The translations under genes were made by a program, and so were the position numbers. Under the pieces are notes generated by a model. The model saw only the letters and a list, made by a program, of their open reading frames with translations. It did not search any database and was not told the origin of the DNA. This document shows positions 2,669-17,551 of a stretch of DNA of 32,000 nucleotides, in pieces; positions within the stretch are counted from its first letter, which is position 1, and each line of letters begins with the position of its first letter. The DNA is from Bdellovibrionales bacterium (lineage in GTDB: Bacteria > Bdellovibrionota > Bdellovibrionia > Bdellovibrionales > UBA1609), in NCBI GenBank assembly GCA_965247685.1, contig OZ252021.1:840001-872000 (forward strand). Reading direction: 5' to 3'.

Positions 2669-2702
2669 ATGCACTAATATAATGAGTGTTCTATTGTACT
2701 AA

Positions 2703-2843
2703 GATTTCAATTCTTCTTGAGAGACAAAATGCTAATCTTATGAATAAAACTGTTAGTAACAGGCAATACGATAGAATTCAAAAAATTGACTGTAACTATA
2801 TAGATCCGTTTTGATTGCACTACAATTTCCTATATGATAAAAT
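2703..2843 (+). CRISPR. orphan copy of the CRISPR leader (2703-2807) plus one solitary, perfect 36-bp repeat (2808-2843)
   Basis: 2703-2843 aligns with 5819-5957 (the array leader plus first repeat). The repeat GTTTTGATTGCACTACAATTTCCTATATGATAAAAT is identical. The approx. 60 nt upstream are identical except for 2 substitutions next to the repeat, and the distal leader carries a 2-nt indel and a few mismatches. Confidence 0.85.
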
Positions 2844-2898
2844 CTATATCAAAACCAAGCTAACAAACAAAATAAATTTCAATTTGTAAGTAGTTTAA

Positions 2899-3252
2899 TT
2901 ACTTCTCACATTGAAACTCATAATTATGAGTTGGGTTGTAGCCCATAATCCATAAAAAAGGAATCCAAAAAAATAGTCCGCCAATTAAAGCTCCAACACT
3001 TAACCGTTCAGTTCGACTGAACATTACAGATTGGCTTTGACAGCCTGCTTTTCTCAAATTAACAGATGTTGTAGAACCCACTACTTTAGTATCAGAGTGC
3101 AAAACCTCACCTGTACCTTGATATTGACCATCGACATACACTTTGACGTTGCGGTCAATATTGCCATTCCTATCTACTACACGAATAGATGTGGTGCTAG
3201 CACAAGATATTAAAGAGCTTGCTACACAAATAGAAATGATACGAAAAAACAT
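2899..3252 (-). CDS. small lipoprotein with C-terminal hydrophobic segment (PEGA-like beta domain, tentative)
   Basis: 117-aa ORF with lipobox LISC (VASSLIS-C-AST). VKVYVDGQYQGTGEV resembles PEGA-type motifs. C-terminal TM-like segment is GALIGGLFFWIPFLWIMG. Confidence 0.55.
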   Translation of the reverse strand: MFFRIISICVASSLISCASTTSIRVVDRNGNIDRNVKVYVDGQYQGTGEVLHSDTKVVGSTTSVNLRKAGCQSQSVMFSRTERLSVGALIGGLFFWIPFLWIMGYNPTHNYEFQCEK

Positions 3253-3445
3253 AAAAACCCCCTTGGAATAGTTTATAGCATCCTACTGAGATGATTTAAC
3301 ATAGTCAATAATCAAAAGAAAAATAAATGAAGAAGTGTTCATTTTAATCAAATTTATTACAAACTAAGGCTAAACCTGCAACCATAAGTAATGCCAATTC
3401 AAAGAACTCGCTATTTTTTTAAGGGTGTTCTTATGGAAGACATAG

Positions 3446-3471
3446 CTGAAAGACATCAAAATGTCTTTCAG
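3446..3471. terminator. perfect 11-bp stem / 4-nt loop hairpin, probable terminator downstream of the abiE operon
   Basis: CTGAAAGACAT-CAAA-ATGTCTTTCAG lies 59 nt past the abiEii stop. The T-rich tail (GTTATTTTAT) is only on the + strand, so the strand it serves is ambiguous. Confidence 0.4.
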
Positions 3472-3529
3472 GTTATTTTATACCGAGCACATGGGTAACA
3501 CTTTCGCTCTAAAGGGATGATCTTACTTG

Positions 3530-4378
3530 TTAAAAGTTTATCTTTTTAACAATATCTTTTGTTGTTTGAACATAGTATGAAAAATTTTGATTAAGACCTT
3601 TTACTGTAGATTGTACTTCTTGCCATCCTATTTCCTGTGATGTCAGAAAATCATCACTATTCAAACAAGAATCAATCAATGAAAGAGGTACATTTTTTGC
3701 TTCAAATACCTTTACGATATGTTTGGACAGCTCTTTAAAAAAATCATTAATTTTTCCTTCATCAAGAACTTTTGTATAAATTTGTTCTATATCATAAAAG
3801 TCACGAGCCCTATTGTTATGTGTGCTTCGATACTTATAATCAGGATGAGATTGACATATAGCTCGAAGTTTTTCCAGAATAAGTAAAGCCTTGGAATAAA
3901 CTTTTATTTCAATGGACTTTACTCTAATTATTTCGAAACTTTCACTGTATTCCATTTCACTGATATCAATTGGAATTTTATTTGTTAACAAACCTTCCGG
4001 AATAATAGCGGAGGCGGATTTTTGATAGACTTTGTTGTTCTTTAGTTATGAGTTTAAATTCAATAGCCCATCCACTCAAGGAGTCAGAACTCCAGTCTGT
4101 CTTATTATAGGTTTACGAATTGGTTTGAAATCGATAACATATAGTTTATTTTTTAAAAATTCTTTACGTATTGCTGATTCAAGATAATTAAAAAAATTAT
4201 TTTCTTTCTCAATTTTTTCAGGAAAAGAAAAATCAGAATCTCTGGATAATCGAGATTTTAAATTATGTACAAATCTTAGAGCTTGTCCTCCTTTTAAATA
4301 CATCTTTCCACTTAAGATATCATGTGAATAAATGGCTACAAGAATTTTCCAAACAACCTCTTCAGCGGTTATCATCAA
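3530..4378 (-). pseudogene. abiEii: AbiEii/DUF1814-like nucleotidyltransferase toxin, interrupted by two in-frame stop codons
   Basis: ORFs 4076-4378 and 3530-3991 are in the same frame. The N-part has LKGGQALRF...RLSRDSDFSF (the nucleotidyltransferase GG...D.D motif of AbiEii). The C-part has LEKLRAI...RARDFYDIEQI. In-frame TGA at 4078-4076 and TAA at 4048-4046 interrupt an otherwise continuous 283-codon frame. The ORF overlaps the stop of abiEi by 17 nt. Confidence 0.65.
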
Positions 4379-5231
4379 TCACTCCTTTGGGATAATGAAT
4401 TTTCCATTTTGAATCATAAGACCAATTTTTATTAAAATTTTTATCTAAATAAAATGTTATTTTAGGAGAAGAAAAATAATTTAACCATTTTTTGCTGATA
4501 TGAGGTTCCTTTAATCTGGAAAGTAGGAAACCTATAGACTGCCAGTAAGGATAAAAAGGGGAATAAGCTTCATAAACTTTATAGAGTTTGTTAATGTTTA
4601 TGCGAGCTTTAGCAAAAGCATTTATAAGAGTTTTAATTCCACCACTATAATGGGGGCTGATTAGAGAATCGATAAGTGTTCTTTCCAGTGATGTAAAAAA
4701 TATTTTAACTTGTCTTGTTTTATCTATTTTCAGTAATTTATTTTTAACTCCTATTTTACCTAAGTCTTGTTTTTCTAATAATGTAATTTTAGTTTTTTGA
4801 TACATAAAGTATTTAGATGTTTTTCTTGGGGATTTAAGGAAGGCTTGATGTATTTTTGCTGAAATCTTTTCCTTTGAATGAGTAGGAATTCTTCCAACAA
4901 TCTCTTTGGATAAAAAATATTCTTCTGGCCTATGATTTGTTAATTCATTTAAGTATAAAGCTGAAAAATGACTAAGGTAATATCTTGGATGAAAAGCTGT
5001 TAATATATCAATAATTTGGATCTTATTTAAATTAAAAGTTAAGAGCTTATAATCTGCTGTTGCATTCCAAACTACAGGGACTTCTGTTACAGCTCTTAGA
5101 ATACGTGTTTTTTCTTGATCTGTAATACGTTTGTTTTTATGCATTTTTTGAAGTAGTTTTTCCAATGTTATCTCAGGAAAAACCATAGGTAATTTTGAAG
5201 AAAGTTCTGTTTTAAATTTTGCAATGGACAT
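4362..5231 (-). CDS. abiEi: AbiEi-like antitoxin / transcriptional regulator (type IV TA)
   Basis: 289-aa ORF immediately upstream of and overlapping the AbiEii-like gene. Motifs LSHFSALYLNELT and TSLERTLIDSLISPHYSGG are typical of AbiEi-family proteins. Recognised from memory, not searched. Confidence 0.6.
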   Translation of the reverse strand: MSIAKFKTELSSKLPMVFPEITLEKLLQKMHKNKRITDQEKTRILRAVTEVPVVWNATADYKLLTFNLNKIQIIDILTAFHPRYYLSHFSALYLNELTNHRPEEYFLSKEIVGRIPTHSKEKISAKIHQAFLKSPRKTSKYFMYQKTKITLLEKQDLGKIGVKNKLLKIDKTRQVKIFFTSLERTLIDSLISPHYSGGIKTLINAFAKARININKLYKVYEAYSPFYPYWQSIGFLLSRLKEPHISKKWLNYFSSPKITFYLDKNFNKNWSYDSKWKIHYPKGVIDDNR

Positions 5232-5253
5232 TACTGTTTAACTCTGTTTTATT

Positions 5254-5281
5254 GTATCATGTGTATATATACACATGATAC
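5254..5281. promoter_or_regulatory. 28-bp perfect palindrome in the abiEi promoter region (candidate AbiEi operator)
   Basis: GTATCATGTGTATA|TATACACATGATAC lies 23-50 nt upstream of the abiEi ATG (5231) and contains a TATATA -10-like core. Confidence 0.55.
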
Positions 5282-5447
5282 TTCTAATTTTAAGATAAGT
5301 CAAGAGAAAAAATGGTAATTTATTAGTTTACATAATTCTTAGTTTCTCCTACAATTTGAAGGGATTTTAAAGGGAAACTTCGGTTACTATAGGTTGTAAG
5401 CGGTTACCAACAGGATGAATAGGTGGTATTTTGTTTAATTTTGAAGT

Positions 5448-5602
5448 TATTTTAGAGTTTTGAAACCCTTACCTTCTATCCCGTCCACCCCACAGATTTC
5501 TTCAAGAAGTGTAGAAAAAATATTTGGAACCTTTTGAACTTCATCTAAAACAACCTTCTTTGATAATCCTTTTACAAACCCAATAGGATCTTCTTTGCTG
5601 TT
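5448..5602 (-). pseudogene. gene fragment resembling the Walker-B region of an AAA-type ATPase
   Basis: A 51-codon open stretch translates to NSKEDPIGFVKGLSKKVVLDEVQKVPNIFSTLLEEICGVDGIEGKGFKTLK*. VVLDEVQ is a hhhhDE Walker-B-like motif. There is no start codon or N-terminal part, and stops flank it in all frames. Confidence 0.25.
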
Positions 5603-5818
5603 TTAGTCACTACATCATCTTTAGCTATTCTGTTTGCCGTACTTAGCAGTGAGTTTAAGTTTAGAAAAATAAAAAAGCATCTTGGAATAAACAAAAAGAA
5701 GTGAAGACAGGTTTTAGTGAAGTTAATTAAAGATTTTCTATCAGGATATGGAAGGGAGATTTTAACAGAGGCCATAAATAAAATAGAAAAATTTACTGGA
5801 GAAAGAGATTGGAGTAAG

Positions 5819-5921
5819 GATTTCAATTCTTATTGAGAGATAAAATGATATATATGAATAAAACTGTTAGTAACAGGCAATACGATAGAATTCAAAAAAT
5901 TGACTGTAACTATATGGATCT
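5819..5921 (+). promoter_or_regulatory. CRISPR leader (transcription-upstream flank of the array)
   Basis: AT-rich 103-nt flank directly 5' of the first repeat in crRNA orientation. It is conserved in a second copy at 2703-2807 and contains the inverted repeat CTGTTA-G-TAACAG (5864-5876). Confidence 0.6.
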
Positions 5922-7540
5922 GTTTTGATTGCACTACAATTTCCTATATGATAAAATAAAGATATCAGCTCATCAAAAAAGCGGGTAGTTTTGATTGCAC
6001 TACAATTTCCTATATGATAAAATGGTAAAACAATTTATAAGTATGCAAATGGTGTTTTGATTGCACTACAATTTCCTATATGATAAAATGGGCTTGTTAA
6101 GCACTATTAATAGGTATATGTTTTGATTGCACTACAATTTCCTATATGATAAAATAGGTTGCGTTGAAAGTCTGTTTTGAAGGGCGTTTTGATTGCACTA
6201 CAATTTCCTATATGATAAAATTGTTATATTATAGTTAAGTAAATAAATCTAGTTTTGATTGCACTACAATTTCCTATATGATAAAATATAAATCTTGAAC
6301 AATTCACTAAGATAATAGTTTTGATTGCACTACAATTTCCTATATGATAAAATTCTTCTTTTGTACTTTCTATTTTTGTAAGTGTTTTGATTGCACTACA
6401 ATTTCCTATATGATAAAATTTAAAAGAAATAAACAAGGAGCTGGAAGTGGTTTTGATTGCACTACAATTTCCTATATGATAAAATTATTCGGTCATATTG
6501 TGTAAAGAGATCATGGTTTTGATTGCACTACAATTTCCTATATGATAAAATAAAGAATATGATGAATGAGGTGGCCAGAAGGTTTTGATTGCACTACAAT
6601 TTCCTATATGATAAAATATATTATAGTTAAATAAACAATTGTCTAGGGTTTTGATTGCACTACAATTTCCTATATGATAAAATTGGTTTACAATTGGTGT
6701 AAAAACCAGCTGGGTTTTGATTGCACTACAATTTCCTATATGATAAAATATCTATAGATCAATTAAATAAAAAAGTCTAGTTTTGATTGCACTACAATTT
6801 CCTATATGATAAAATTGAAAAGCCGTGGTTGTCCGATAAGACTAGGTTTTGATTGCACTACAATTTCCTATATGATAAAATATTACAAGTTGATTCACAA
6901 GCTCGGACGATGTTTTGATTGCACTACAATTTCCTATATGATAAAATATTTATAGAAGATTACAATAATAAATATGCGTTTTGATTGCACTACAATTTCC
7001 TATATGATAAAATACCACTAGAATAAATATGGATTGGAACTCCGTTTTGATTGCACTACAATTTCCTATATGATAAAATTCATTGTACTGGATGGAATGA
7101 ATATAATGTGTTTTGATTGCACTACAATTTCCTATATGATAAAATTCCTCGGTTAAGGACCTCGCCTCGATTTATGTTTTGATTGCACTACAATTTCCTA
7201 TATGATAAAATAGTTACAGAAATTGTGGGTTTCACAACTCCGTTTTGATTGCACTACAATTTCCTATATGATAAAATGGGTCTTCGTTCCACACACCACC
7301 TGCGTTGGTTTTGATTGCACTACAATTTCCTATATGATAAAATAAATGTAAAATTTGAGAATGGATGTGCTTAGTTTTGATTGCACTACAATTTCCTATA
7401 TGATAAAATTGAAGTGGCCGGAACTATTAATATTGCTACGTTTTGATTGCACTACAATTTCCTATATGATAAAATTTATAAATATGCAAACGGTAGGAAG
7501 CCTTGTTTTGATTGCACTACAATTTCCTATATGATAAAAT
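5922..7540 (+). CRISPR. CRISPR array, 25 x 36-bp repeats, 24 spacers (23 x 30 bp, last one 29 bp)
   Basis: Repeat GTTTTGATTGCACTACAATTTCCTATATGATAAAAT starts at 5922, 5988, 6054 ... 7440 (period 66) and at 7505. All copies look identical on inspection. Orientation is set by the GTTTT 5' end and by the strand of the tracrRNA anti-repeat and its terminator. Confidence 0.97.
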
Positions 7541-7591: not shown

Positions 7592-7924
7592 TCAAAATAG
7601 TAGCAACTGTTGTTTCTTCTTAGTTAATTTTTCATCATACTTTCCACGAAAACTCACAATATTACTAAACTGCTTATCCGTCACAGCTAATAGATCAATT
7701 TTCCCATTTTGAGGCAGTTGGTAAGAAATTTTTTTAATGAGACTTTCCACCTTTTCTTTACTAGGGCATACCTTAGAATAAACAGAATATTGAACCATCT
7801 GAAAACCAAGATCCAATAAACGATACCTAAATTTAGATGCCATTTTTCTCTCTTTTTTTGTTGTTACCGGTAAATCAAAAAAAGTAAATAACCACATAAC
7901 TCTATAATGACCTAAATAACTCAT
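7592..7924 (-). CDS. cas2: CRISPR-associated endoribonuclease Cas2
   Basis: 110 aa. N-terminal MWLFTFFDLPVTTKKERKMASKFRYRLLDLGFQMVQYSVY is typical of type II Cas2. It has a 4-nt overlap with cas1 and is adjacent to the array. Confidence 0.92.
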   Translation of the reverse strand: MSYLGHYRVMWLFTFFDLPVTTKKERKMASKFRYRLLDLGFQMVQYSVYSKVCPSKEKVESLIKKISYQLPQNGKIDLLAVTDKQFSNIVSFRGKYDEKLTKKKQQLLLF

Positions 7925-8871
7925 GCCGAAGTTTTTATTTTCTTAGAATATAAAAAACTTAAATTAAAATTTTGCCAATTTATCTTTAGATTAATATCCC
8001 ATTTTTTCTTTTCCTTACACAATACTAACGCCAAGGCGGTGGACATTCGAGAAATAACTTGAAACAGTGGACTTATTCCAGAGCATCCTTCAACATCCAC
8101 AATCACAAGACCTGACAGTACCTGCTTCACTTCCTTATTCACATCACGATATGCTTGTGAGTATAACTGTCTTACAACATAATCTGCGATAGGTCTAAAA
8201 GGCTCTATTAAGTCATCTACCAAACACATAGGATTATACATATTTCTATGATGAATACCTATACTAGGATGAAGCCCTGACACAATAACACCTCTTGCAA
8301 CACAAGACCGTATAATAGCATAAGCATAATTTAACATCGCATTAATGCCATCTCCATTTTGATCTCTTTTAAATTTGTTGGAAAATAATCTCATCCAATA
8401 GACCCTAGCACCTTGAGCTTCTAAATTATTCAAATCTCCAGGTTGAACTAAATTGGACATATTGAATAATTTTTTATAAGGCAAACCTAACTCCTTCAAT
8501 ACTAAAGATTGATTTTTTAACTTTAACTTTACCACTTCTTTCCACAATCTTTTTTGTAAAGATTGACTCATATTAACCTGAGATTGAATCCTTATATTTT
8601 GTTTACAATTTCCAACTAACGGCAAAAGAATAGCTCTTGGTGAAAAATTGGATCCACATATAGAAACTGGAATCCCACGATCTGATAATTCCACTAAAAT
8701 ATTAGAAGAATAAATACAACCATAACCTGTAATAACAATACCTAAAATATCATCAAGAGAAACACGAGATAATAAATTCTGTTTTTCTTTGATCTCTAAA
8801 AACCCTCTATATAAACTTAGACGAATATTAGGTCTCGAGATTTCAATAAACTGTCCAAAACTACTACTCAC
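7921..8871 (-). CDS. cas1: CRISPR-associated integrase Cas1
   Basis: 316 aa, positioned between cas9 and cas2. Size and the conserved C-terminal region (NAMLNYAYAIIRS...GLHPSIGIHHRN...LVDDLIEPFRP) fit type II Cas1. Confidence 0.92.
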   Translation of the reverse strand: MSSSFGQFIEISRPNIRLSLYRGFLEIKEKQNLLSRVSLDDILGIVITGYGCIYSSNILVELSDRGIPVSICGSNFSPRAILLPLVGNCKQNIRIQSQVNMSQSLQKRLWKEVVKLKLKNQSLVLKELGLPYKKLFNMSNLVQPGDLNNLEAQGARVYWMRLFSNKFKRDQNGDGINAMLNYAYAIIRSCVARGVIVSGLHPSIGIHHRNMYNPMCLVDDLIEPFRPIADYVVRQLYSQAYRDVNKEVKQVLSGLVIVDVEGCSGISPLFQVISRMSTALALVLCKEKKKWDINLKINWQNFNLSFLYSKKIKTSA

Positions 8872-8880
8872 AAACTCAAC

Positions 8881-11800
8881 CTAAGCACTATGTCTTTTAG
8901 ATTCTTCTTTACCAACAATAAAATCAGTCAATTGAACCAAACCACAAGGGCTAATATTAACTCGTTTAGGATTACATTTTTGTAGAGAAGATGGACTCTT
9001 TTGTGTGTACTTATATTGATCTGATCTACTTCTGTTTCTTGCATCTACATTCGCTTCAAAATGCTCTGAAAATGTTAGATTTTTATTTTGTGTAAATTTA
9101 ACAAGCCTCCAGAATCGACCAGCAAAAAATAACATATCCCCTTTCATCAATCTTGCTTTGTCTGGAATAGGCTTAAAAGTCTTTTGATTAGCAGAAAATA
9201 TACTTATAACTTGTGCATCCCATTTTCCGCTTGAGTTTTTAAACAGTTGAATTGCATAATTTCCATCCTCCTGAAAAAATTTGTAAATTTTTCCAAATTT
9301 ATTTTCAATAGGTATCACTCGTTCCTTTCTATTTAAGCGAACCCTGCGAATACCTGTTTTTTGGTGATAATTAATTAAAAATTCTTTAGAGAGGGTATTA
9401 TTGACTTTTAATTCTTTTAAAAAATCTTGTTTCACCTTTTCACTAATGATTCGACTTTCTATTTTCTTTTTATCTGCTCCGTTTAAAGTCAAAATTTCAA
9501 CATAATGGATCACATTAATTGGCTTGGAAAAAGTATTAACACTACCTAATACCCCGTAAGCTGTATCATTGTGGAGTTGACCTGCTTTTTTAGTTCTCCT
9601 TCTGTGAGATACAATAATTTGATCTATTACTCTCTTAGCATCTTCTTTAAAAGAAGGCCAAGGAATCACATCTTGTGTTATCACTCTACCAATATTCTCC
9701 AGCCTCTCTTTACTCTTTCCTTCTATTCCCTTCGCAATATTACTAATCTGTTGAACTAAAGAACGATCAACTAAACCTATCACAAGAGCATCTTTTGCAT
9801 GATGTCTATGATCGTTCCTATTTTTTTTATCATACTGTAACAAAGATCTTAAAAGAAATGTAGTCTGTCCTTTAACACTCCACACATCTTTACAAACTCT
9901 TCCTAAATACTGAATAGCATATTTAGATATATAACGAGTATCATTCAACTGCCTTTCTAAAAAGTTTCCATTTTCTTCAAATTTCTTCATAGCATCCTTG
10001 TTAAATTTCCATCGTTTTTGCTCAGATAACTCATTAACTCTCTGAAGAATTCCTGCCCATCGCACTTTATCAGATGAAAAGGCTTCATAAGGAGTTTGGT
10101 TCCCTTTTTGTTGATTAAAAACTTTATAAACCAACACTTTATTCATAAAGCCGTCATCTAAAGTCTTAGAGTAGGGCAATATGTGATCAACTTCCAGCTC
10201 TGGACTAAGAAGTTTAGTTTCTGGAATCTTTTTACCAGAGTAAACACAGGTATTGTTTTGCTCTTTCCAAAGCTTATATCTGACACGATTCGTTTTATTG
10301 TTAATTCCTCCAAACTCATCAATAAATTTTTTCGCATCTTCATTTCTTTTTTTATTATCATTTATTTTCTTATCTGATTTTTTTTTAGTTTCTGAGCCCA
10401 TTGGTAAATCTCTAGCTGTCTCTATCACCACCTCCATCGGTTTTCCATAGACACGAAGGATATCATTTACCAATAGCCTTAATTGATTAAAAGCAATATG
10501 GACTGTAGGATTTGGAATTCTGAAGGACTCAAATTTATTATGTTTACTCTCTGCTGTTTCAGACAATTTCATCTCCACACAATGGTCTCCTAAAACTTGC
10601 TGATAAAGAGGTAGCTTGTCTAACAACTCACCTTTATGTCTCCTATCTGAATGATGCCAGCCTGCTAACTTAATAGCTTCAATTTCCAATTCTCCCTTTT
10701 CAAGAAAAGGTATAATTTTGTGAATAACTTTTCTACTGTATTTCCCATGATCTTGTGGAAGATCGTTCATGTTTTCCAAAACGTTATCCAAAATTTGATC
10801 AGAAATATTTAAATTATTTTCTCTACTAAACTTTTGTAAATCTTTTAAGACTTCCTCATCCTTTTTTATAAAGATATCTTCTTGGCTTTCACCCTCCAAT
10901 AACTCGATAAATTGATCCTGAATATCTAAAGACCAACTTTGCCAATCAGGTATAAGGTTTGTCAAAACTATACTAGTTTGCTCTCCCTCTAAATAATTCC
11001 TATCGTTAATATCTAAGTTAAAACGAGAAAAGTCTTCTACATCAGAGAAAAAATTTTTAAATTCTTTTTCTAAAGAAGAAAATGTAACTTTATTTTTCTT
11101 TTGAAATAGCTTTTCAATAACATAATTTCTAAACTCAATACCTTTATCCATATCCTTCAATAACACACTTTCACCCATCATATTTATATAAGATAAATTA
11201 TTTAATTCTTTTAAAATCCTAAATTTTTGAAAAGAAGGCAATGCTCTACTAATTCGTTTCTCACTAGGGAGAAAATAACATTTTCCGACAATAGACTTCT
11301 TTAATTGCCTTTGATGAAAAATAGCCTTATGAAATAAAGCTTTCAACTTTTGATCTTTCAACTTATCGTAATATTGAGACTGAGAGTCCCAGAGTTTATT
11401 AAATTCATTTTCAATCATAGACCTTTGAGCATAAACAACATAATTCTCCTTAGCTCCAGCACCTATTGGCTTTCTAGCTAATATCCAGTGTTCTTGTTGA
11501 GATCCTGGGTGTTTTCTACTTTCTTCCATCTTTTGAAAACGTTTCCATAAAAATTCACCATATGTTCTAGCTCCACATTTTTCTAGTTGCTCTTCTGAAT
11601 TTTCTACAGATTTAGCAATAATCCCATCCTCTTTTCCACTTCCTGATTTCCTATTACTTTTAAAACCTCTTCTTTGATTTAAGTGAAATAAAGCTCTTCC
11701 AAAATGATAAATATTCAACTTTTCATCCAGCCCCTTGGTTCTTATTTCATATGGGTTTAAATTTTGTAACTCTTTTAAAGAACATTGATCCTCCGGGAAT

Positions 11801-12108
11801 AATCCATATTTTTTCAACAAATGAAGAAGATAAGCTCTTCTCTGTAAATAACGATCTCTTTGTCTTCTTTGCAGCCTTGCCTGCCTGCGAGTGGCATTTA
11901 AAGTTGTATAATCTTTGGAATTTCTACCAGAGGGAAAAATCCTCACCCCTGCTTCTGTAATCTCTTTAGGACTGTTGTTTTTATCTAAATTATATAAAGC
12001 CCACCCTATAGAATTAGTTCCTATGTCTAAAGCAAGTCTTAAGTTATTTGGGGGTTGTTTTAAATCTTGATTTAGATCTTTCAGTTTTAAAATTTTATCA
12101 CCTGACAT
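8881..12108 (-). CDS. cas9: Cas9, type II-C size class (1075 aa)
   Basis: Motifs present: RuvC-I LALDIGTNSIGWAL (D28), Arg-rich bridge helix RRQARLQRRQRDRYLQRR, RuvC-II VVIETARDL, HNH EVDHILPYS...NKVLV...NQQKGNQTPYE and RuvC-III HHAKDALVIG. AAGGAG RBS at 12117-12122, 8 nt from the ATG. No csn2 or cas4 in the locus. Confidence 0.97.
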   Translation of the reverse strand: MSGDKILKLKDLNQDLKQPPNNLRLALDIGTNSIGWALYNLDKNNSPKEITEAGVRIFPSGRNSKDYTTLNATRRQARLQRRQRDRYLQRRAYLLHLLKKYGLFPEDQCSLKELQNLNPYEIRTKGLDEKLNIYHFGRALFHLNQRRGFKSNRKSGSGKEDGIIAKSVENSEEQLEKCGARTYGEFLWKRFQKMEESRKHPGSQQEHWILARKPIGAGAKENYVVYAQRSMIENEFNKLWDSQSQYYDKLKDQKLKALFHKAIFHQRQLKKSIVGKCYFLPSEKRISRALPSFQKFRILKELNNLSYINMMGESVLLKDMDKGIEFRNYVIEKLFQKKNKVTFSSLEKEFKNFFSDVEDFSRFNLDINDRNYLEGEQTSIVLTNLIPDWQSWSLDIQDQFIELLEGESQEDIFIKKDEEVLKDLQKFSRENNLNISDQILDNVLENMNDLPQDHGKYSRKVIHKIIPFLEKGELEIEAIKLAGWHHSDRRHKGELLDKLPLYQQVLGDHCVEMKLSETAESKHNKFESFRIPNPTVHIAFNQLRLLVNDILRVYGKPMEVVIETARDLPMGSETKKKSDKKINDNKKRNEDAKKFIDEFGGINNKTNRVRYKLWKEQNNTCVYSGKKIPETKLLSPELEVDHILPYSKTLDDGFMNKVLVYKVFNQQKGNQTPYEAFSSDKVRWAGILQRVNELSEQKRWKFNKDAMKKFEENGNFLERQLNDTRYISKYAIQYLGRVCKDVWSVKGQTTFLLRSLLQYDKKNRNDHRHHAKDALVIGLVDRSLVQQISNIAKGIEGKSKERLENIGRVITQDVIPWPSFKEDAKRVIDQIIVSHRRRTKKAGQLHNDTAYGVLGSVNTFSKPINVIHYVEILTLNGADKKKIESRIISEKVKQDFLKELKVNNTLSKEFLINYHQKTGIRRVRLNRKERVIPIENKFGKIYKFFQEDGNYAIQLFKNSSGKWDAQVISIFSANQKTFKPIPDKARLMKGDMLFFAGRFWRLVKFTQNKNLTFSEHFEANVDARNRSRSDQYKYTQKSPSSLQKCNPKRVNISPCGLVQLTDFIVGKEESKRHSA

Positions 12109-12279
12109 AAAAAAAACTCCTTTATAAATATACAGTCACTTTGAAAGTAGTTTCGGATAAAATATTAAAAACATTAGGAATAATTTTACTTTTTTAATAA
12201 AAAAATAAAATCTATTTCATAATGAAACATAAAAATAGAGTATGAAAAAAAATTATACAGTAAATAATCAAAAAAACAT

Positions 12280-12308
12280 TTGATCATATTGATAAACTAT
12301 GTTCTAAT
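12280..12308 (+). promoter_or_regulatory. candidate sigma70-type promoter of tracrRNA
   Basis: TTGATC (12280-12285), 17-nt spacer, TCTAAT (12303-12308). Predicted start is about 12314-12316, just 5' of the anti-repeat. Weak -10, so speculative. Confidence 0.3.
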
Positions 12309-12309
12309 G

Positions 12310-12400
12310 ATCAACAATCATATAGGAAATTGTGGTACTCTCAATAACAAGCGAGTATTCGCACCAGTCTTAGGCGAAGGAAACTTCGCCTTTGTTTTTT
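12310..12400 (+). ncRNA. tracrRNA: tracrRNA (anti-repeat + nexus-like hairpin + terminator hairpin); 5' end approximate
   Basis: 12317-12333 ATCATATAGGAAATTGT is perfectly complementary to repeat positions 15-31. 12334-12348 GGTACTCTCAATAAC pairs imperfectly (wobble, 2-nt internal loop, 1-nt bulge) with the repeat 5' end GTTTTGATTGCACT. This is followed by hairpin GCGA-GTAT-TCGC (12351-12362) and a terminator. It is divergent from cas9. Confidence 0.8.
12373..12400 (+). terminator. rho-independent terminator of tracrRNA
   Basis: GGCGAAG-GAAA-CTTCGCC (7-bp stem, GNRA tetraloop) followed by TTTGTTTTTT. Confidence 0.8.
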
Positions 12401-12568
12401 CTATATTAAAAAATAAATCTTTTAATATCTGCATAAAAAGCCCCTTTCCAAAAGATAGGTAATAAGAAGAAGACTGTACACCTTTTGCACATTCATATTT
12501 TTGAGATGGCTGATAATTCAATTGGTCTCTTCCAAGATAAACAGATTTTTTAATAAAAAACTGAATAT

Positions 12569-12597
12569 TTGTATATACTTTAGAATTTTTCTATAAG
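12569..12597 (+). promoter_or_regulatory. candidate promoter upstream of the solitary degenerate repeat
   Basis: TTGTAT (12569-12574), 17-nt spacer, TATAAG (12592-12597). The predicted start at about 12604 would leave a 5' tag of approx. 13 nt before the repeat-like element. Confidence 0.3.
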
Positions 12598-12616
12598 ATC
12601 AAATAAGACTTTTATG

Positions 12617-12651
12617 GTTTTGATTGTACTACAATTTCCCGTAGGTAAAAC
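12617..12651 (+). repeat. solitary degenerate CRISPR repeat (same orientation as array repeats)
   Basis: GTTTTGATTGTACTACAATTTCCCGTAGGTAAAAC. The first 23 nt match the array repeat except C11>T. The 3' third is diverged, so the TGATAAAAT promoter-like box is lost. Confidence 0.8.
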
Positions 12652-12857
12652 TTATAGAATCAACAGCCTATATACTTTTTTGAATTTTATCACTGATAGA
12701 AGTTGATCTGTTTTTGTCACAACTGATCATAACTAAAATTAAAAAAAAATCCCAAATGGAACGATAAAGTTTTTACTGATTTTGATTAAGAATTTCGTTT
12801 CTTATCTTCAGTATATATGCTTTCGTGAGGGTTGCTTAATACCTAAGATCTTAAGTA

Positions 12858-14498
12858 TTAAACTCTATTCAGTACACTATCGCATTCACGTTCTTGATAT
12901 AAATCTTCAAGAGCTGCTACAGGCTCTTTTGCGTATGTCAGTAACTTACAAGCCTGAATAAGGTTATTTTCTTTTCTGTAATATAGATTACTTAATAAAT
13001 ATAAATACAAAGGATTCCTTAATTGAGCAAGTCCTTGAAACAGTTGATGAGCTTCTTTAAATTGCCGTGTCAAATAAAACTGATGACCCACAACAAATTG
13101 TGCTTCTAAATTACCTGCTTGAGCCGCTTCACGTATACGTATATCAAGTCTTTGAATATTTGTAATATTCTTTTGAACTAAAAACTTCAAAATATTTTTA
13201 TCTACCTCATTTAGTTCTGGATTTGAACTGGACAATTTGTGGTAAGTATCGAGCAAATCATCTTTGTTTACAGGGTTTAAAAAATTGGATAAAATCATAT
13301 CATTATCTAAGTAAAATATAGCTCTCATCATCAAATCTTTTTTATTTTCTTCATCAGATAATAATTGATAGTAAAACAATGATTCTTGCTCTTTAATCAA
13401 GCTAGCTATACTCTCTTTACTTGTTTTCAAGGAAGACATAAAATTCTCGAAACCATTATTGATAGGAATTACATTCAAGTGCCTACACTCTGATGAAGGA
13501 TGGATAGAGGAGGTAATTCCAATAATTTTCCCATCCTGATTTAAAGCAGGGCTTCCGCTGATTCCAATTAAAGTCTTACAAGAAGTCATATTATGAGAAA
13601 CCATAAAAGAAGTGTATAAGGAATTTATTGAAAATGCGTTTGTAGCTTTTATTTTTTGTAAACCCCATTTTGTAGGGTAACCTAAAATATAATTTGGAAC
13701 TTCATTCAAGTAATCATCCGCTAAACTTAAAGTAGACCCTGTATAATTTTCCACCTCCAAAACAGCTAGATCCATCAAAAGAGACAAATCTCTAACACCT
13801 GTGATAAGAAACTTTTGATCTCCTTGCTCAACATAAAAAGGAGTATTAGATGTCTTCTTAAACCAATCTTGATCAGGAATATTCATTTGAATTAAAAGCC
13901 ATAGAATGCTTCCAAAAATATGATAATTAGTAACAAATATTGGTTGTTTATTAGAGTCTTTAATGAAGAATCCAGATCCGATACCTTCGCTTCTTGTATC
14001 AACATCTTCTCTAAATTGCACAATAACTCGTCCAACTCCACTTTGAGTTTTCTCCAGCCATTGTGGAAAGATTAATTCTTCTTGGTGATTAGTTTTATCA
14101 ACTGAGCTAGTTTCTTCTTGCGAAGAAAAATCTTCTGGAGACTCTTCTTTAGGATCGATACAAAACTCTGAATATCTTCCATTTGAGTGTAATTCTATAA
14201 AACAGTCTTTGATATAGGGAGACTGTGTGCTCAACATTTCTAAAGCATTGTTCCGAGGATCAGAGTTATCTCCTCTTATCTCTATCGAACAGTTTTTAGA
14301 ATAACCTGTTAATACTTTCTCAATAGAGCATTCTTTTGTATATTCTTGTAATAGAAAAGTTTCCGAGGAATTCACTTCCACGATTTCCCCTCCCACTAAC
14401 TTTTTTTTCCCTTTCAAAGGATCTAAAAGAATCTTGGAGTCATCTGCATAAAGATGAAAGGAAGTCAAAAACAACAAAAGACAAATTAAATTTTTCAT
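12858..14498 (-). CDS. secreted trypsin-like serine protease fused to C-terminal Sel1/TPR-like repeats
   Basis: Signal peptide MKNLICLLLFLTSFHLYA. Chymotrypsin-fold triad order is His (FVTNYHIF), Asp (MDLAVLEV), Ser (GISGSPAL). The C-terminus AAQAGNLEAQFVVGHQFYLTRQFKEAHQLF... is Sel1-like. Confidence 0.7.
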   Translation of the reverse strand: MKNLICLLLFLTSFHLYADDSKILLDPLKGKKKLVGGEIVEVNSSETFLLQEYTKECSIEKVLTGYSKNCSIEIRGDNSDPRNNALEMLSTQSPYIKDCFIELHSNGRYSEFCIDPKEESPEDFSSQEETSSVDKTNHQEELIFPQWLEKTQSGVGRVIVQFREDVDTRSEGIGSGFFIKDSNKQPIFVTNYHIFGSILWLLIQMNIPDQDWFKKTSNTPFYVEQGDQKFLITGVRDLSLLMDLAVLEVENYTGSTLSLADDYLNEVPNYILGYPTKWGLQKIKATNAFSINSLYTSFMVSHNMTSCKTLIGISGSPALNQDGKIIGITSSIHPSSECRHLNVIPINNGFENFMSSLKTSKESIASLIKEQESLFYYQLLSDEENKKDLMMRAIFYLDNDMILSNFLNPVNKDDLLDTYHKLSSSNPELNEVDKNILKFLVQKNITNIQRLDIRIREAAQAGNLEAQFVVGHQFYLTRQFKEAHQLFQGLAQLRNPLYLYLLSNLYYRKENNLIQACKLLTYAKEPVAALEDLYQERECDSVLNRV

Positions 14499-14565: not shown

Positions 14566-14606
14566 TTTCTTAAGGACTTTACACCGATGAGCGTACTCAA
14601 AAAAAC

Positions 14607-15620
14607 CTACAAGCTAGCTACAGATTGTTCGCATTTTCGCCTTTCTGCTTCTTGAAGAATTTTCCCTGCATATGGAAAACTACTTGAAATTGCCATAAAT
14701 GAAGGTTTTCGATCCTGGTTATCTGGGATGCTCGGATCTGCTCCGAGTTCGAGAAGAGTGGTTATTGTATTTTGATGACCTTGTTCAGCTGCATGGTGTA
14801 AAGGTGTTTGACCTTTATTATCTTGTTCATTTAGATTTACTCCTTCTCTGTCGAAAAGTCTTATCATATATGAACGACCTTTTGTAGCTTCCAAGTGTAG
14901 AACTGTTTCACCCTTGTTATTTTTTCTATCCAGATCTGGTTTGTATTTGAAGAAAATTTCTGCCAGAAATGAATGACCCTTGTATTGGTGGGCTACGAGT
15001 GAAAGTAGGTGTAAAGGTGTTTGGCCCTTGTTATTTTGGCTATTCAGATCTGCTCCATTTTTAGCAAGATGGATTGCTATACCTGAGAAGAAATTTCTTA
15101 CTTGAACTGCACGATGTAAAGGAGTGTTACCTTCGTTATCTTTGATTTTTAAAACTTCTACTAAATCTTCTACTTCGATTTTTTTGAAGAGATTTTGTAA
15201 TTCACGTGAACTGCTTGCTTGAGCTAACAGGTGTAAAGGTGTTTGACCCTTGTTATTTTGGCTGTCTAGCCTTGTTTTGTTGAAGAGAGTTTTTGTTACG
15301 AGTGAATGACGTGCTTCAATTGCAAGATGTAAAGGTGTTTGACCTTCATTATCTGGTTTATTCAGAACTGCTCCATGTTGGAAGAGAACGTTTGCCATAC
15401 GTGAATTACCTCTTTGAGCTGCTATATGTAAGGCTGTTTGACCCTTGTCATATTTGGTATTTAATAAATCTCTTACTGTCGAAAGATCTGTTGCTTTAAG
15501 AAAAGTATCAATTTTCCGAGCATTTCCTTTTTGAACTAAATCGAAAAATTGATTTTCAAGTTCTTTTGCTCCTGCATAAGTAGTAAAACATAATATTATT
15601 CCGATAACATAAATTTTCAT
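14607..15620 (-). CDS. ankyrin-repeat protein with N-terminal signal peptide
   Basis: 337 aa with at least 7 tandem ANK units of consensus N.KGQTPLHLA....G (e.g. DNEGQTPLHLAIEARH, NNKGQTPLHLLAQ, DNKGQTPLHHAAEQGH). The N-terminus MKIYVIGIILCFTTYAGA is signal-like. Near-identical 33-bp DNA blocks occur inside the gene. Confidence 0.85.
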   Translation of the reverse strand: MKIYVIGIILCFTTYAGAKELENQFFDLVQKGNARKIDTFLKATDLSTVRDLLNTKYDKGQTALHIAAQRGNSRMANVLFQHGAVLNKPDNEGQTPLHLAIEARHSLVTKTLFNKTRLDSQNNKGQTPLHLLAQASSSRELQNLFKKIEVEDLVEVLKIKDNEGNTPLHRAVQVRNFFSGIAIHLAKNGADLNSQNNKGQTPLHLLSLVAHQYKGHSFLAEIFFKYKPDLDRKNNKGETVLHLEATKGRSYMIRLFDREGVNLNEQDNKGQTPLHHAAEQGHQNTITTLLELGADPSIPDNQDRKPSFMAISSSFPYAGKILQEAERRKCEQSVASL

Positions 15621-15705
15621 AACTAACCCTTCCAGTTAAATAAATATTATTGAGTGATTTTTTTATCTATTAAATAACGAATATAATCAAGTCAATTTAG
15701 TACAG

Positions 15706-15722
15706 TGTAATAATTACATAGA
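15706..15722. promoter_or_regulatory. second copy of the 17-bp palindromic motif, upstream of the ankyrin gene
   Basis: TGTAATAATTACATAGA lies 86-102 nt upstream of the ATG at 15620. Confidence 0.4.
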
Positions 15723-15812
15723 CTCATAAAGCTGCAAGAGTAGTTTTAAATAATATTTTGGATTAAAATAGTTATAATTTGAAAAAATATTTAAAGTTAC
15801 TTCATCAAATAT

Positions 15813-15851
15813 GTTTCAATTTCACTGCAATTTCCTATCAAGATGTGAAAC
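15813..15851 (+). repeat. diverged CRISPR-repeat-like element
   Basis: GTTTCAATTTCACTGCAATTTCCTATCAAGATGTGAAAC. About 22 of the first 26 nt match the array repeat, including CACT(G/A)CAATTTCCTAT. Same orientation as the array. Termini are GTTTCA...TGAAAC. Confidence 0.6.
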
Positions 15852-15854
15852 AGG

Positions 15855-15930
15855 ATGGGTCATTAGAGTCTCCAATGAAGGATCCAGATTCGACACCTTC
15901 TTCTTTATAGAAGGATTCATTCTTAAAAAA
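15855..15930 (-). pseudogene. truncated paralog fragment of the trypsin-like protease gene
   Basis: 15862-15910 aligns to 13951-13999 at roughly 85% DNA identity. It translates to FYKEEGVESGSFIGDSNDP, against EGIGSGFFIKDSNKQP in the intact gene. It is bounded by an in-frame TAA (15933-15931), and the frame runs into the repeat-like element. Confidence 0.55.
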
Positions 15931-16012
15931 TTAAGAAGAGAACTTTGTTAAAAGCTTCCAGCAAAACTAGTCATTGTTATTCGCCTAACAGCCATTGATC
16001 AGTATAAATACT

Positions 16013-17551
16013 TCAACTATAGCGATCTTCACATTGTTCTTTTTTTTCTAAACAAGATGGGTGGTCAATAGAATGTTGCCCAGCTTGCTCAATACATTCA
16101 TAAAAAAACTGATTTTTCTCCTGACATTTTCCATATAAAATAAAATTAAAATGACGAGGACTTAAAAGAGAGATATTTTTTTCTTTATTAAAAGTACTAT
16201 TCCATCTCTTCCAATGATTGCTCATAATACTATCTTCACTAGTAAATCTACAATCATAGACTGAATGGGAATATTGTCCATAGTTATCAGATATCGCCTT
16301 TAGATTTTCTTTTTGAGAATAACTCCTTTCTTCATATTCATCCTCAAGCCCAAATAAGTGCAACATCTCATGAAGTATCGAGGGACAGTCGATATTTGAG
16401 GAATATTGGAATGTATTAGAGCGATGATGTCTTGACTGAATTTCAATTTTTTCTGATTTCTTTTTTTCACAAGTGTCTTTTGGAGATGAAATAATGATAT
16501 TCAATTTTTCTCCGTTGGGACCTATTAGTTTTGGATTGGCTTTATTCATACATTTTTTTACTTTTGTCATATAATGTTCAGGGATTTGGTCTTGAGGGAT
16601 ACTTCCATCATAATTTTTTCCTGCAACAAAATGCATGTTTAAATTAATAACATAAGATCCGTTTAGTTTTCTCTGGACTGAGTGGAATGGTGTAACAAGG
16701 TATCCATAAGGAAAAATCTTTTTTTCTGATCCAGGTTCTAAAGATTGACATATTTCCAATTCTTGCACTTTATTTAGAAAGTCTTTTATATCACTTATTC
16801 CGGTATTCGTTGTGAAATTTTGAGTTAGGCATATACCACCTTCTATATTAAATGTATCTTGTGGACTAACAAAAAGAGCTGTTAAATTTTCAATACGATT
16901 TTGGCGGATACGTATATCTTCATCAATAGTTTGACAAACAAAATTGTTTCTACTTTCCTTATTGAGACATTCCTGAGGTATCCTTTGTGTTTCTATTTTA
17001 TTAACTATTCTATTTAAGATTTGTGCAATGCAGTTTACGTCTTTATTTTTGATTTTATTAAAAACCTCAGAATGAACTTGGTCTGAACCATACCATATAC
17101 GATTTCTAAACGTATTCTTTGAACAGTGGTTGCAGTCTAGTGCCTCTTGCATTTCTTGGTAACCAATTGGTGCATCGACTGGATAATAGCCTTTTGGAAA
17201 TAATGTCATTTCTTCCATTTCTTGATAAGTTTGTTGAGATGCTTCAAGTATACGTGTTGTTGCGTCTTCAATGCATTCAGGGGAATTTTTACATAAATTT
17301 GCAATATCTTGTTGAAGGTTTTGCTTTATTTTTTGTAATTTTTCCAGATTCTCTTCATAAGGATATTTCTGAGGAAGTTCTCTTATTCGTTCAATAATAT
17401 CAGATACATCTAGGAGATCACCTTTTGTTTTCAAAGTAGCGTAGGGTCTCTCGGAGGTTATAGGAATGTATATTTTTTGTTCTTCTGCTATGGAAAATGA
17501 GGCTTTAGCAGTAATAAATATCAACAGTAATATAGATAGATATTTGTACAT
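16013..17551 (-). CDS. secreted zinc metalloprotease, metzincin-like (HExxHxxGxxD)
   Basis: 512 aa with signal peptide MYKYLSILLLIFITAKASFS. Contains the motif ILHEMLHLFGLEDEYE followed by a possible Met-turn (DSIMS) and many Cys residues. Family assignment (M64-like?) is uncertain. Confidence 0.65.
   Translation of the reverse strand: MYKYLSILLLIFITAKASFSIAEEQKIYIPITSERPYATLKTKGDLLDVSDIIERIRELPQKYPYEENLEKLQKIKQNLQQDIANLCKNSPECIEDATTRILEASQQTYQEMEEMTLFPKGYYPVDAPIGYQEMQEALDCNHCSKNTFRNRIWYGSDQVHSEVFNKIKNKDVNCIAQILNRIVNKIETQRIPQECLNKESRNNFVCQTIDEDIRIRQNRIENLTALFVSPQDTFNIEGGICLTQNFTTNTGISDIKDFLNKVQELEICQSLEPGSEKKIFPYGYLVTPFHSVQRKLNGSYVINLNMHFVAGKNYDGSIPQDQIPEHYMTKVKKCMNKANPKLIGPNGEKLNIIISSPKDTCEKKKSEKIEIQSRHHRSNTFQYSSNIDCPSILHEMLHLFGLEDEYEERSYSQKENLKAISDNYGQYSHSVYDCRFTSEDSIMSNHWKRWNSTFNKEKNISLLSPRHFNFILYGKCQEKNQFFYECIEQAGQHSIDHPSCLEKKEQCEDRYS

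Follow-up and report, generated by a model that had tools for sequence, protein, structure and literature searches.

Elements of two kinds, degenerate or orphan CRISPR repeats on the one hand and scaRNA-type mini-arrays on the other, have been described before, and the one that we analyzed here is at best a new member in a new lineage. A scaRNA is known from Francisella novicida, and predictions of scaRNAs cover 16 type II systems, Neisseria among them (PMC6199352). The scaRNA of the N. meningitidis II-C system has been studied experimentally and appears to act largely on mRNA, partly independently of Cas9 (PMC13431127). Roughly 6% of type II loci contain mini-arrays (Shmakov et al. 2023, PMC10120712), and unconserved mini-arrays that have no target, for example in type III loci, are treated as degraded repeats (PMC10120712). 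A third system, tracr-L of the S. pyogenes II-A locus, is a natural single guide: a long form of the tracrRNA carries an 11-nt guide and targets the cas9 promoter (10.1101/2020.05.21.102756). The scaRNAs described so far have a promoter at one end and a terminator at the other, their transcripts have been detected, and they bind Cas9.

We analyzed a 32-kb window, by which we mean the whole stretch of DNA under study (32,000 nucleotides, 33% GC). The window holds a type II-C CRISPR-Cas9 locus, and the positions of its features are collected in Table 1. The array repeat has the sequence GTTTTGATTGCACTACAATTTCCTATATGATAAAAT, the 3' end of each array repeat is an extended -10 (TGATAAAAT), and the last repeat of the main array is a perfect copy. 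We used two sets of loci for comparison: (i) a clade set, consisting of the window and 11 related loci (L001 and L082-L091), with Cas9 proteins that are 51-66% identical; and (ii) a set of 80 more distant II-C loci. The Cas9 relatives that bear names come from MAGs labelled 'Bdellovibrionales bacterium'. An extended -10 at the repeat end, varying in sequence, is kept in 12/12 clade loci. Zhang et al. are said to have described, in 2013, a promoter within each repeat of Neisseria-type II-C loci, and the repeat of the window resembles the repeats of that type in ending with an extended -10.

The terminator of the tracrRNA is located at 12372-12391. Homologues of the tracrRNA in 12 loci align with one another, and the terminator stem shows compensatory changes. 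A covariance model built from the 12 tracrRNAs of the clade finds exactly one tracrRNA per locus, at 59-108 bits, with the tracrRNA of the window scoring 102 bits. Because of this alignment with its compensatory changes, and because of the covariance model, the tracrRNA assignment is solid. Rfam at the gathering threshold identified only a tRNA and a 16S rRNA in the window, and at E<=5 it returned nothing meaningful in 12100-12900.

Table 1. Positions of the CRISPR-Cas9 genes, the tracrRNA and the repeat-derived sequences in the 32-kb window.
Feature	Position	Strand	Description
Leader copy with one perfect repeat ('empty array')	2693-2843	+	92% identical to 5808-5957 over 152 nt; repeat 36/36
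Array leader	~5808-5921	+	adjoins array start
CRISPR array	5922-7540	+	25 identical 36-nt repeats, 24 spacers; convergent with cas2
cas2	7592-7924	-	ORF and Pfam Cas2
cas1	7921-8871	-	ORF and Pfam Cas1
cas9	8881-12108	-	1075 aa, type II-C size; ORF; homologues with HNH/RuvC_III domains
tracrRNA gene	12313-12400	+	anti-repeat, nexus hairpin, terminator; divergent from cas9
Promoter-like pair TTGTAT-17-TATAAG	12569-12597	+	TTGTAT at 12569-12574, 17-nt gap, TATAAG at 12592-12597
Degenerate copy of the 3' 20 nt of the repeat	12585-12604	+	ATTTTTCTATAAGATCAAAT vs AATTTCCTATATGATAAAAT; 16/20
Insert ('tag')	12605-12616	+	AAGACTTTTATG; 12 nt, between the two repeat pieces
5' part of the stray repeat ('handle')	12617-12639	+	GTTTTGATTGTACTACAATTTCC; 22/23 vs array repeat
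Diverged 3' third of the stray repeat	12640-12652	+	CGTAGGTAAAACT replaces TATATGATAAAAT; 7/13
T6 run	12676-12681	+	25 nt past the repeat
Third, more decayed repeat	15813-15848	+	19/23, or 22/26 counting CCTAT

The stray repeat begins 217 nt beyond the tracrRNA terminator, within the 12401-12857 intergenic region that precedes the next gene, and is oriented in the transcription sense of the array. The match of its handle to the array repeat was obtained 0 times in 100 shuffles. Over the 3' third the agreement is near the chance level for DNA of 26% GC, and the repeat-borne extended -10 is gone from this segment. A first-pass annotation of the DNA had described a repeat that keeps its 5' part and has lost its 3' third, and our alignment bears this out (22/23 over 12617-12639 and 7/13 over the next 13 nt). 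The diverged segment matches the 3' end of a degenerate repeat copy in L083 at 9/13 positions, a similarity of uncertain significance. We considered this shared 3' end as a possible sign of selection and rejected it: no further instances were found, and the L083 copy has lost tracrRNA-pairing positions and therefore lends selection no support.

The same annotation had proposed that a single C11>T change in the stray repeat closes the only C:A mismatch of its duplex with the tracrRNA. RNAduplex leaves C11 of the array repeat unpaired against an A of the tracrRNA and pairs U11 of the stray copy, as proposed. The word 'only' needs qualification, since U8/U9 also lie in an internal loop; C:A is the sole mismatch within the long helix. 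Over the first 24 nt, the predicted duplex with the anti-repeat is more stable for the stray copy than for the array repeat (-25.8 vs -21.9 kcal/mol). Over the full 36 nt the order is reversed (-28.0 for the stray copy vs -33.1 kcal/mol for the array repeat), because the anti-repeat pairs the 3' third of the repeat too. The tracrRNAs of L087 and L090 have a G opposite C11, i.e., the same mismatch is closed from the tracrRNA side, and closing it is therefore tolerated in relatives. A single C>T among 8 G/C positions in an AT-rich genome is by itself not significant. Together, the alignment and the predicted duplexes show that the stray repeat is repeat-derived and keeps the sequence needed for tracrRNA pairing.

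Read in reverse complement, 12617-12639 can pair with the crRNA repeats at 22/23 positions, and a promoter-like site is present on the minus strand at 12755-12726. Both observations would fit the earlier suggestion of a second anti-repeat read from the minus strand, which would serve as an alternative tracrRNA. However, the covariance model has no match over 12560-12660, which includes 12617-12651, on either strand up to E=10. On the minus strand we found neither a nexus nor a hairpin or terminator, and Rfam identified nothing there. We give this suggestion almost no credence.

The first-pass annotation had called the repeat solitary, which it is not. The degenerate copy of the repeat's 3' half ends 12 nt upstream of it and is the only such non-array match in the window, and further copies of the repeat lie at 2693-2843 and 15813-15848. 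At the local composition, a 16/20 match is expected by chance ~0.5 times per 32 kb and ~1e-3 times per 60 nt. The unit is thus laid out as a repeat 3'-half, 12 nt of other sequence, and a repeat 5' part. Such a layout, with two repeat-like pieces (one of them strongly degraded) around a spacer-like intergenic insert outside the array, resembles that of mini-arrays and CreA-CreR regulators. Unlike in mini-arrays, the insert is only 12 nt long, and no partial match to a cas promoter or to a neighbouring toxin gene was found; the 10-nt match in AbiEii, described below, lies in a conserved coding motif. This 12-nt insert is the unusual point of the element, and it is explained neither by decay nor by a regulatory role. 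The extended -10 of the upstream half has changed from TGATAAAAT to AGATCAAAT, with both the TG and A(-11) mutated; one change in this motif created the TATAAG of the promoter-like pair.

We weighed two principal readings of the element at 12585-12652: (i) what is left of a second array unit or of a duplicated one, which we consider the probable reading; and (ii) a scaRNA-like or mini-array regulatory RNA, which would be transcribed from TATAAG or TAAGAT, start at ~12604-12607 and consist of a 10-13-nt guide followed by the handle, and which we consider unlikely. Under the second reading the RNA would pair with the tracrRNA, load Cas9 and bind an endogenous site without cleavage (or target RNA), a mode of action that we likewise doubt. 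Several features do speak for a regulatory RNA. Like the scaRNAs of F. novicida (II-B), N. lactamica (predicted) and N. meningitidis, the element lies apart from the array, in intergenic DNA of the cas locus. It also shares with them a degenerate repeat in array orientation, capable of pairing with the tracrRNA and preceded by a short non-repeat 5' segment. It lies on the correct strand, its tracrRNA pairing is intact and improved, and the upstream half, whose match is improbable by chance, leaves only the 12-nt insert as a guide. Finally, scaRNAs are known in type II systems, II-C Neisseria among them (PMC6199352, PMC13431127), as are mini-arrays (PMC10120712).

The transcription signals around the element argue against a regulatory RNA. 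The TTGTAT-17-TATAAG pair that had been proposed as the element's own promoter is present as described, but it does not rise above chance: 12050-12900 contains 5 promoter-like sites vs 5.4 expected from shuffles. A consensus promoter scan omits the pair, as TTGTAT agrees at 3/6 positions and TATAAG is without the final T. The promoter that would derive from the repeat has changes at critical -10 positions, and the loss of TG and A(-11) from the upstream half favors a remnant. The T6 run is where the annotation had placed it. A terminator scan found no qualifying stem-loop on the plus strand between the repeat and T6, RNAfold predicts no more than weak AU-rich pairing, and no Rho-independent terminator bounding the unit was identified at 12617, although the locus uses clear GC-rich terminators elsewhere in the window. 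We rejected a 30-aa ORF at 12614-12706 as a gene, as it has no ribosome-binding site and no support, and we likewise rejected a decayed leader upstream of the stray repeat, whose local alignment scored no better than the null (P=0.4).

We searched the window for sites that the element might recognize. The 14-nt tag has no match at <=1 mismatch elsewhere in the 32 kb, in agreement with what the first reading of the sequence had reported. The best PAM-proximal match is a perfect 10-nt match at 3793-3804 on the minus strand, where ~0.14 such matches are expected by chance; it codes for a conserved RARDFYD motif in a split AbiEii gene, and we rejected it as a target. We also rejected the Shine-Dalgarno region of cas9 (12113-12124), with which the tag pairs at 11/12 positions when G.U is allowed, as the window contains 45 comparable sites. 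For the tag and the region around the cas9 translation start, the predicted duplex energy is -8.0 kcal/mol (P about 0.3). Neither a translation start nor any other site of the 32 kb stands out for complementarity to the tag, which counts against a regulatory RNA, and no tag target was found in the cas9-tracrRNA intergenic region. The element would resemble tracr-L, if it works, in joining repeat-like sequence to a short guide (11-nt in tracr-L) so that Cas9 represses instead of cutting. It differs from tracr-L in being a separate unit set apart from the tracrRNA terminator and in having no match to the cas9 promoter. These target searches covered the 32-kb window out of a 1.28-Mb genome, in which about 2 perfect 11-mer matches to the tag are expected from composition.

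The spacers of the array were of little help in defining a PAM. No protospacers were found in phage records, in four viral-contig scans or in the retrieved related loci; the 20 matches from one of the viral-contig scans are limited to a 19-nt core and are not protospacers. Overlapping spacers gave just one inferable flank, AGGAAGCC. A BLAST match that would make 12586-12616 a relative of an L083 spacer was rejected as not significant against 240 clade spacers (P=0.25).

Stray repeats elsewhere in the window favor a remnant. Two more extra-array repeats are present, and with the 12617 copy they form a decay series: 2808 (perfect, the repeat within the 2693-2843 leader copy), 12617 (22/23) and 15813 (19/23). 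In the 15813 copy, predicted tracrRNA pairing is reduced to -16.1 kcal/mol. An AbiE-type toxin-antitoxin remnant is located in the block between the 2693-2843 leader copy and the main leader, and a trypsin-like protease gene and an ankyrin-repeat gene are bracketed by the stray repeats at 12617 and 15813. We tried to find closer relatives of the locus through the trypsin-like gene; its best homologue is 50% identical and lies beside a tRNA gene, in another context and with no repeat.

The apparent variability of the trypsin-like/ankyrin gene pair, which the element adjoins, would fit a different role, that of a guide-less decoy. A transcript of the handle would titrate the tracrRNA and Cas9 and so damp interference, like repeat-mimicking RNA anti-CRISPRs or the solitary repeats of mobile elements, and the handle does pair with the tracrRNA better than the array repeat does over the first 24 nt. 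Against this, we found neither transcription signals nor conservation of the element, nor mobile-element or phage genes nearby, and one chromosomal copy would be a weak competitor for 25 promoter-bearing array repeats. We regard a decoy as very improbable.

Extra-array repeats are common throughout the clade. Same-sense stray repeats occur on the cas9 side in ~6/12 clade loci (the window, with two copies, L082, L083, L086, L087 and L091) and on the leader side in 4/12 (the window, L084, L085 and L089); at the same threshold, a stray repeat was found in 1/54 other II-C loci. Their positions and flanks vary between clade loci. In L086, 5906-6170 matches 15757-16033, with a copy of a PDDEXK_2 gene included; in L087, 9111-9188 matches 16499-16576; and in L085, direct repeats of 217 nt and 247 nt flank the tracrRNA end and the stray repeat. 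Judged by such alignments, several of the clade's stray repeats are plainly segmental duplications of the leader and first repeat (L086, L087 and 2693-2843 of the window). Clade arrays also contain internally duplicated spacers. From the frequency of stray repeats, the duplications and the duplicated spacers, it follows that the Cas9 loci of this clade are rearrangement-prone, and stray repeats at every stage of decay are normal debris in them. The duplication origin of the other strays weighs against a regulatory RNA at 12617, and none of the tags of the clade's stray repeats is complementary to its own cas9 start. Like degenerate terminal or orphan repeats, the element has a conserved 5' part and a diverged 3' end, is isolated, has no spacers of normal length, and has sibling copies at differing stages of decay nearby. 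Unlike a degenerate terminal repeat, it lies ~5 kb from the array, beyond cas2-cas1-cas9-tracrRNA, and does not qualify as a terminal repeat.

We also asked whether the element is conserved, a check that the first-pass annotation had named. No equivalent element is present between the tracrRNA and the next gene in any of the 11 related clade loci (0/11). In the two closest relatives (Cas9 66% and 63% identical), the next gene abuts the tracrRNA terminator, with no repeat between them. A candidate for a decayed counterpart downstream of the L086 tracrRNA (GTTTTTGATTGTGTACTA) was rejected, as its 9-mer TTTGATTGT has 11 chance occurrences in 585 kb. The element thus has neither a conserved position in the 11 related loci nor a partial target in the cas9-tracrRNA intergenic region, one or both of which characterize mini-arrays. 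Its absence from the relatives counts against a regulatory RNA and is in line with a remnant. However, this is a conservation test of low power, because the nearest relative, other than the window's own Cas9, has only 66% Cas9 identity.

Two more distant II-C loci provided a positive control. In L056, a degenerate repeat lies ~300 nt downstream of the tracrRNA on the same strand and matches at 21/24 positions, and 3/3 of its substitutions keep tracrRNA pairing as G.U. It is preceded by a repeat 3' remnant with a promoter-like TTGATA-17-TATTTT, and a 15-bp terminator hairpin follows directly after the repeat. The 14-nt insert is paired at 14/14 positions (11 Watson-Crick, 3 G.U) with the start-codon region of cas9, the only non-self site of 14/14 quality in that locus. 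This tag duplex has a predicted energy of -22.1 kcal/mol, compared with -9.5 +/- 2.1 for shuffled tags, and 0/1000 shuffles reach it. L011, whose Cas9 is 59% identical to that of L056, has a counterpart at the same position: a repeat remnant with a perfect extended -10 (TGTTATAAT), after which come an insert of 68 nt, a degenerate repeat matching at 17/24 positions and a strong terminator. By these sequence features, the L056 and L011 elements look like genuine scaRNA-type or mini-array genes.

The window element shares with the L056 and L011 elements its position and strand relative to the tracrRNA and its layout of remnant, insert and handle, with an insert of 12 nt vs 14 in L056. This recurrence of the layout at the same place supports a regulatory RNA. 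The differences are in the functional signals. In L056 and L011 the repeat runs straight into a strong terminator and the promoters are better, whereas at the window element no terminator was found and promoter-like sites are at chance level; the L056 insert complements the cas9 start codon region, whereas no such target was found for the window element within the 32 kb; and the element is conserved between L056 and L011, whereas that of the window is not conserved in relatives. In short, L056 as the positive control combines promoter, terminator and a tag paired at 14/14 positions, and none of these was found above chance for the window element, as would be expected of a remnant. What stands of the earlier proposal of a scaRNA/CreR-like crRNA mimic is the strand, the pairing and the layout shared with L056 and L011; promoter, terminator, conservation and target complementarity do not bear it out.

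A broader form of the regulatory reading would make short-insert mini-arrays downstream of the tracrRNA a recurrent II-C device, with the window element as a working member, which we consider quite doubtful. In such a device, a guide of 12-14 nt, set between a repeat remnant with a promoter and a tracrRNA-pairing handle, would make Cas9 a non-cutting, sequence-specific regulator of DNA or mRNA, again with little probability in our estimate. The L056 guide would act at the cas9 start codon, where its G.U pairs fit RNA-level targeting, though we would not rely on this either. The target of the window element would then lie elsewhere in the 1.28-Mb genome, a supposition that we hold equally loosely.

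Considering the evidence as a whole, we favor the interpretation that the element is left over from a second CRISPR unit or a duplicated one, a possibility that the first-pass annotation had listed and that gains from the two further extra-array repeats in the window and from the clade duplications, several of them demonstrable. In such a remnant, the 3'-half of one repeat would be followed by an insert that has become shorter and by a repeat with other sequence in place of its 3' third. The loci of this clade are reshaped again and again by segmental duplications and deletions, and these may have left the element on the tracrRNA side of the cas operon, the 12617 copy having presumably arisen by duplication, as other clade strays did. 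With promoter-like sites at chance, no terminator or significant window target found, and no counterpart in the 11 relatives, the element appears to have neither dedicated transcription signals nor a target and hence would not have been selected as a gene. Chance read-through of it could load Cas9 with a meaningless guide.

Some observations do not sit easily with a remnant. The handle is 96% identical to the array repeat while its flanks are unrecognizable, a pattern that suggests a very young fragment, gene conversion, or selection acting on the handle. The pieces that are kept are exactly those that an RNA gene needs, namely a repeat half with a promoter, a short insert, and a handle that pairs with the tracrRNA, and the sole substitution in the handle improves tracrRNA pairing. 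L056 shows the same layout and position with an insert of 14 nt that is a functional-looking tag. Moreover, the conservation test is weak with the nearest Cas9 at 66%, and the target search was confined to the window.

Were the element to work, the few cases of natural Cas9 reprogramming for regulation would be joined by one from a Bdellovibrionales-like lineage of predators or symbionts, and a simple route from array debris to regulator, through spacer truncation, would be suggested. The main value of the element is cautionary: in a clade whose Cas9 loci are strewn with duplicated repeats, pairing competence and AT-rich 'promoters' are insufficient for calling a scaRNA. The clade-wide abundance of stray repeats and the L056 and L011 genes are by-products of more interest than the element itself. 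Of these, the small-RNA gene of L056 and L011, with an L056 tag that complements the cas9 translation start, is a more promising lead than the window element.

Stray copies of the CRISPR repeat occur in the window beyond the partly decayed one at 12617, and we collected their positions with those of the other features in the table below. Between the "empty array" and the leader of the real array, 2844-5807 carries the remnant of an AbiE-type toxin-antitoxin system, in which AbiEii is split into two ORFs (4076-4378 and 3530-3991). Two relatives, L084 and L090, likewise have AbiEii genes flanking their Cas9 loci. On the other side of the locus, the repeats at 12617 and 15813 bracket the genes for a trypsin-like protease and an ankyrin-repeat protein; the pair looks inserted into, or captured between, repeats.

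Features located in the window and in the compared loci
Feature	Locus	Position	Strand or orientation	Remark
Second CRISPR leader copy with one perfect repeat ("empty array")	window	2693-2843		3 kb before the real leader
Imperfect palindrome ATTTCATAATGAAAC	window	12215-12229		cas9-tracrRNA intergenic region; clade-conserved
Third repeat copy, more decayed (19/23)	window	15813-15848	array orientation	
Direct repeats (217 and 247 nt, 96-97% identical)	L085	8908-9771 and 19790-20245		beside 5S rRNA gene
Complete small-RNA gene	L056	9350-9485	-	about 300 nt downstream of tracrRNA
Pairing target of the L056 insert	L056	9978-9991	+	cas9 start-codon region
Counterpart of the L056 element	L011	9350-9500	-	position as in L056

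Stray repeats of this kind are a habit of the clade: same-sense copies lie around the Cas9 loci of 9 of its 12 members (the window and eleven relatives), versus a few percent of 54 other II-C loci. Several of them adjoin genes for AAA_14/DUF4143 ATPases (in L082, L091 and, twice, L085), and one, in L086, adjoins a PDDEXK_2/Rpn-like gene. L082 has, at 121-213, a perfect stray repeat and, after it, a copy of the region upstream of tracrRNA. In L085, the 217- and 247-nt direct repeats come after the tracrRNA terminator in one of their copies and after a degenerate stray repeat in the other; the pattern looks like a gain or loss, as one unit, of everything between array and tracrRNA inclusive. Within single arrays, identical spacers recur in L083, L085, L086, L088, L090 and L091, with one spacer present in several copies in the L086 array (14569-15792), which indicates that repeat-mediated duplication inside these arrays is frequent. 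In locus L112 (11900-12510), the closest homologue of the trypsin-like gene (50% identity) adjoins a tRNA gene that is followed by two repeated copies of the tRNA 3' end, the mark that integrative elements leave when they use a tRNA gene as attachment site.

An extended -10 box (TGATAAAAT, TGGTAATAT, TGATATAAT, TGATAGAAT, TGGTATCAT) closes every repeat of the window array (5922-7540) and of all clade arrays. Because this box varies in sequence while its function-like form is conserved, it points to crRNA promoters borne by the repeats, by analogy with Neisseria, where repeats carry the crRNA promoters. The palindrome between cas9 and tracrRNA resembles the 3' half of the repeat, and could be an operator. 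An alignment of the clade tracrRNAs (A3, column 25) has G rather than A opposite repeat position C11 in L087 and L090, so that here the tracrRNA closes the mismatch, whereas in the window it is the stray repeat at 12617 that closes it, from the crRNA side. Window spacers 2 and 24 (6024-6053 and 7476-7504) overlap on one target region, with two differences, and share the core TTATAA.TATGCAAA with one L082 spacer; the 3' flank inferred from their overlap, AGGAAGCC, is the only hint of a PAM.

Two distant II-C loci outside this Cas9 clade, L056 and L011 (Cas9 59% identical to each other), carry small-RNA elements with repeat-derived parts. The L056 gene combines a promoter-like TTGATA-17-TATTTT and a strong terminator with two repeat-derived pieces, a repeat 3' remnant and a degenerate repeat (21/24), between which lies a 14-nt insert (GGAAATGTGTGCTA). 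In its L011 counterpart, a 68-nt insert separates a repeat remnant bearing a perfect extended -10 (TTCTGATTTGTTATAAT) from a degenerate repeat (17/24), and the terminator is AGAGGGTGCGAAAGTGCCCTCT; we looked for complementarity between this element and the start of L011 cas9, and found none that was significant. The L056 insert pairs with the start-codon region of its own cas9 at 14 of 14 positions, three of them G.U, in a duplex of -22.1 kcal/mol that none of 1,000 shuffles equalled. The L056 small RNA is a candidate autoregulator of cas9, possibly acting at the mRNA level.
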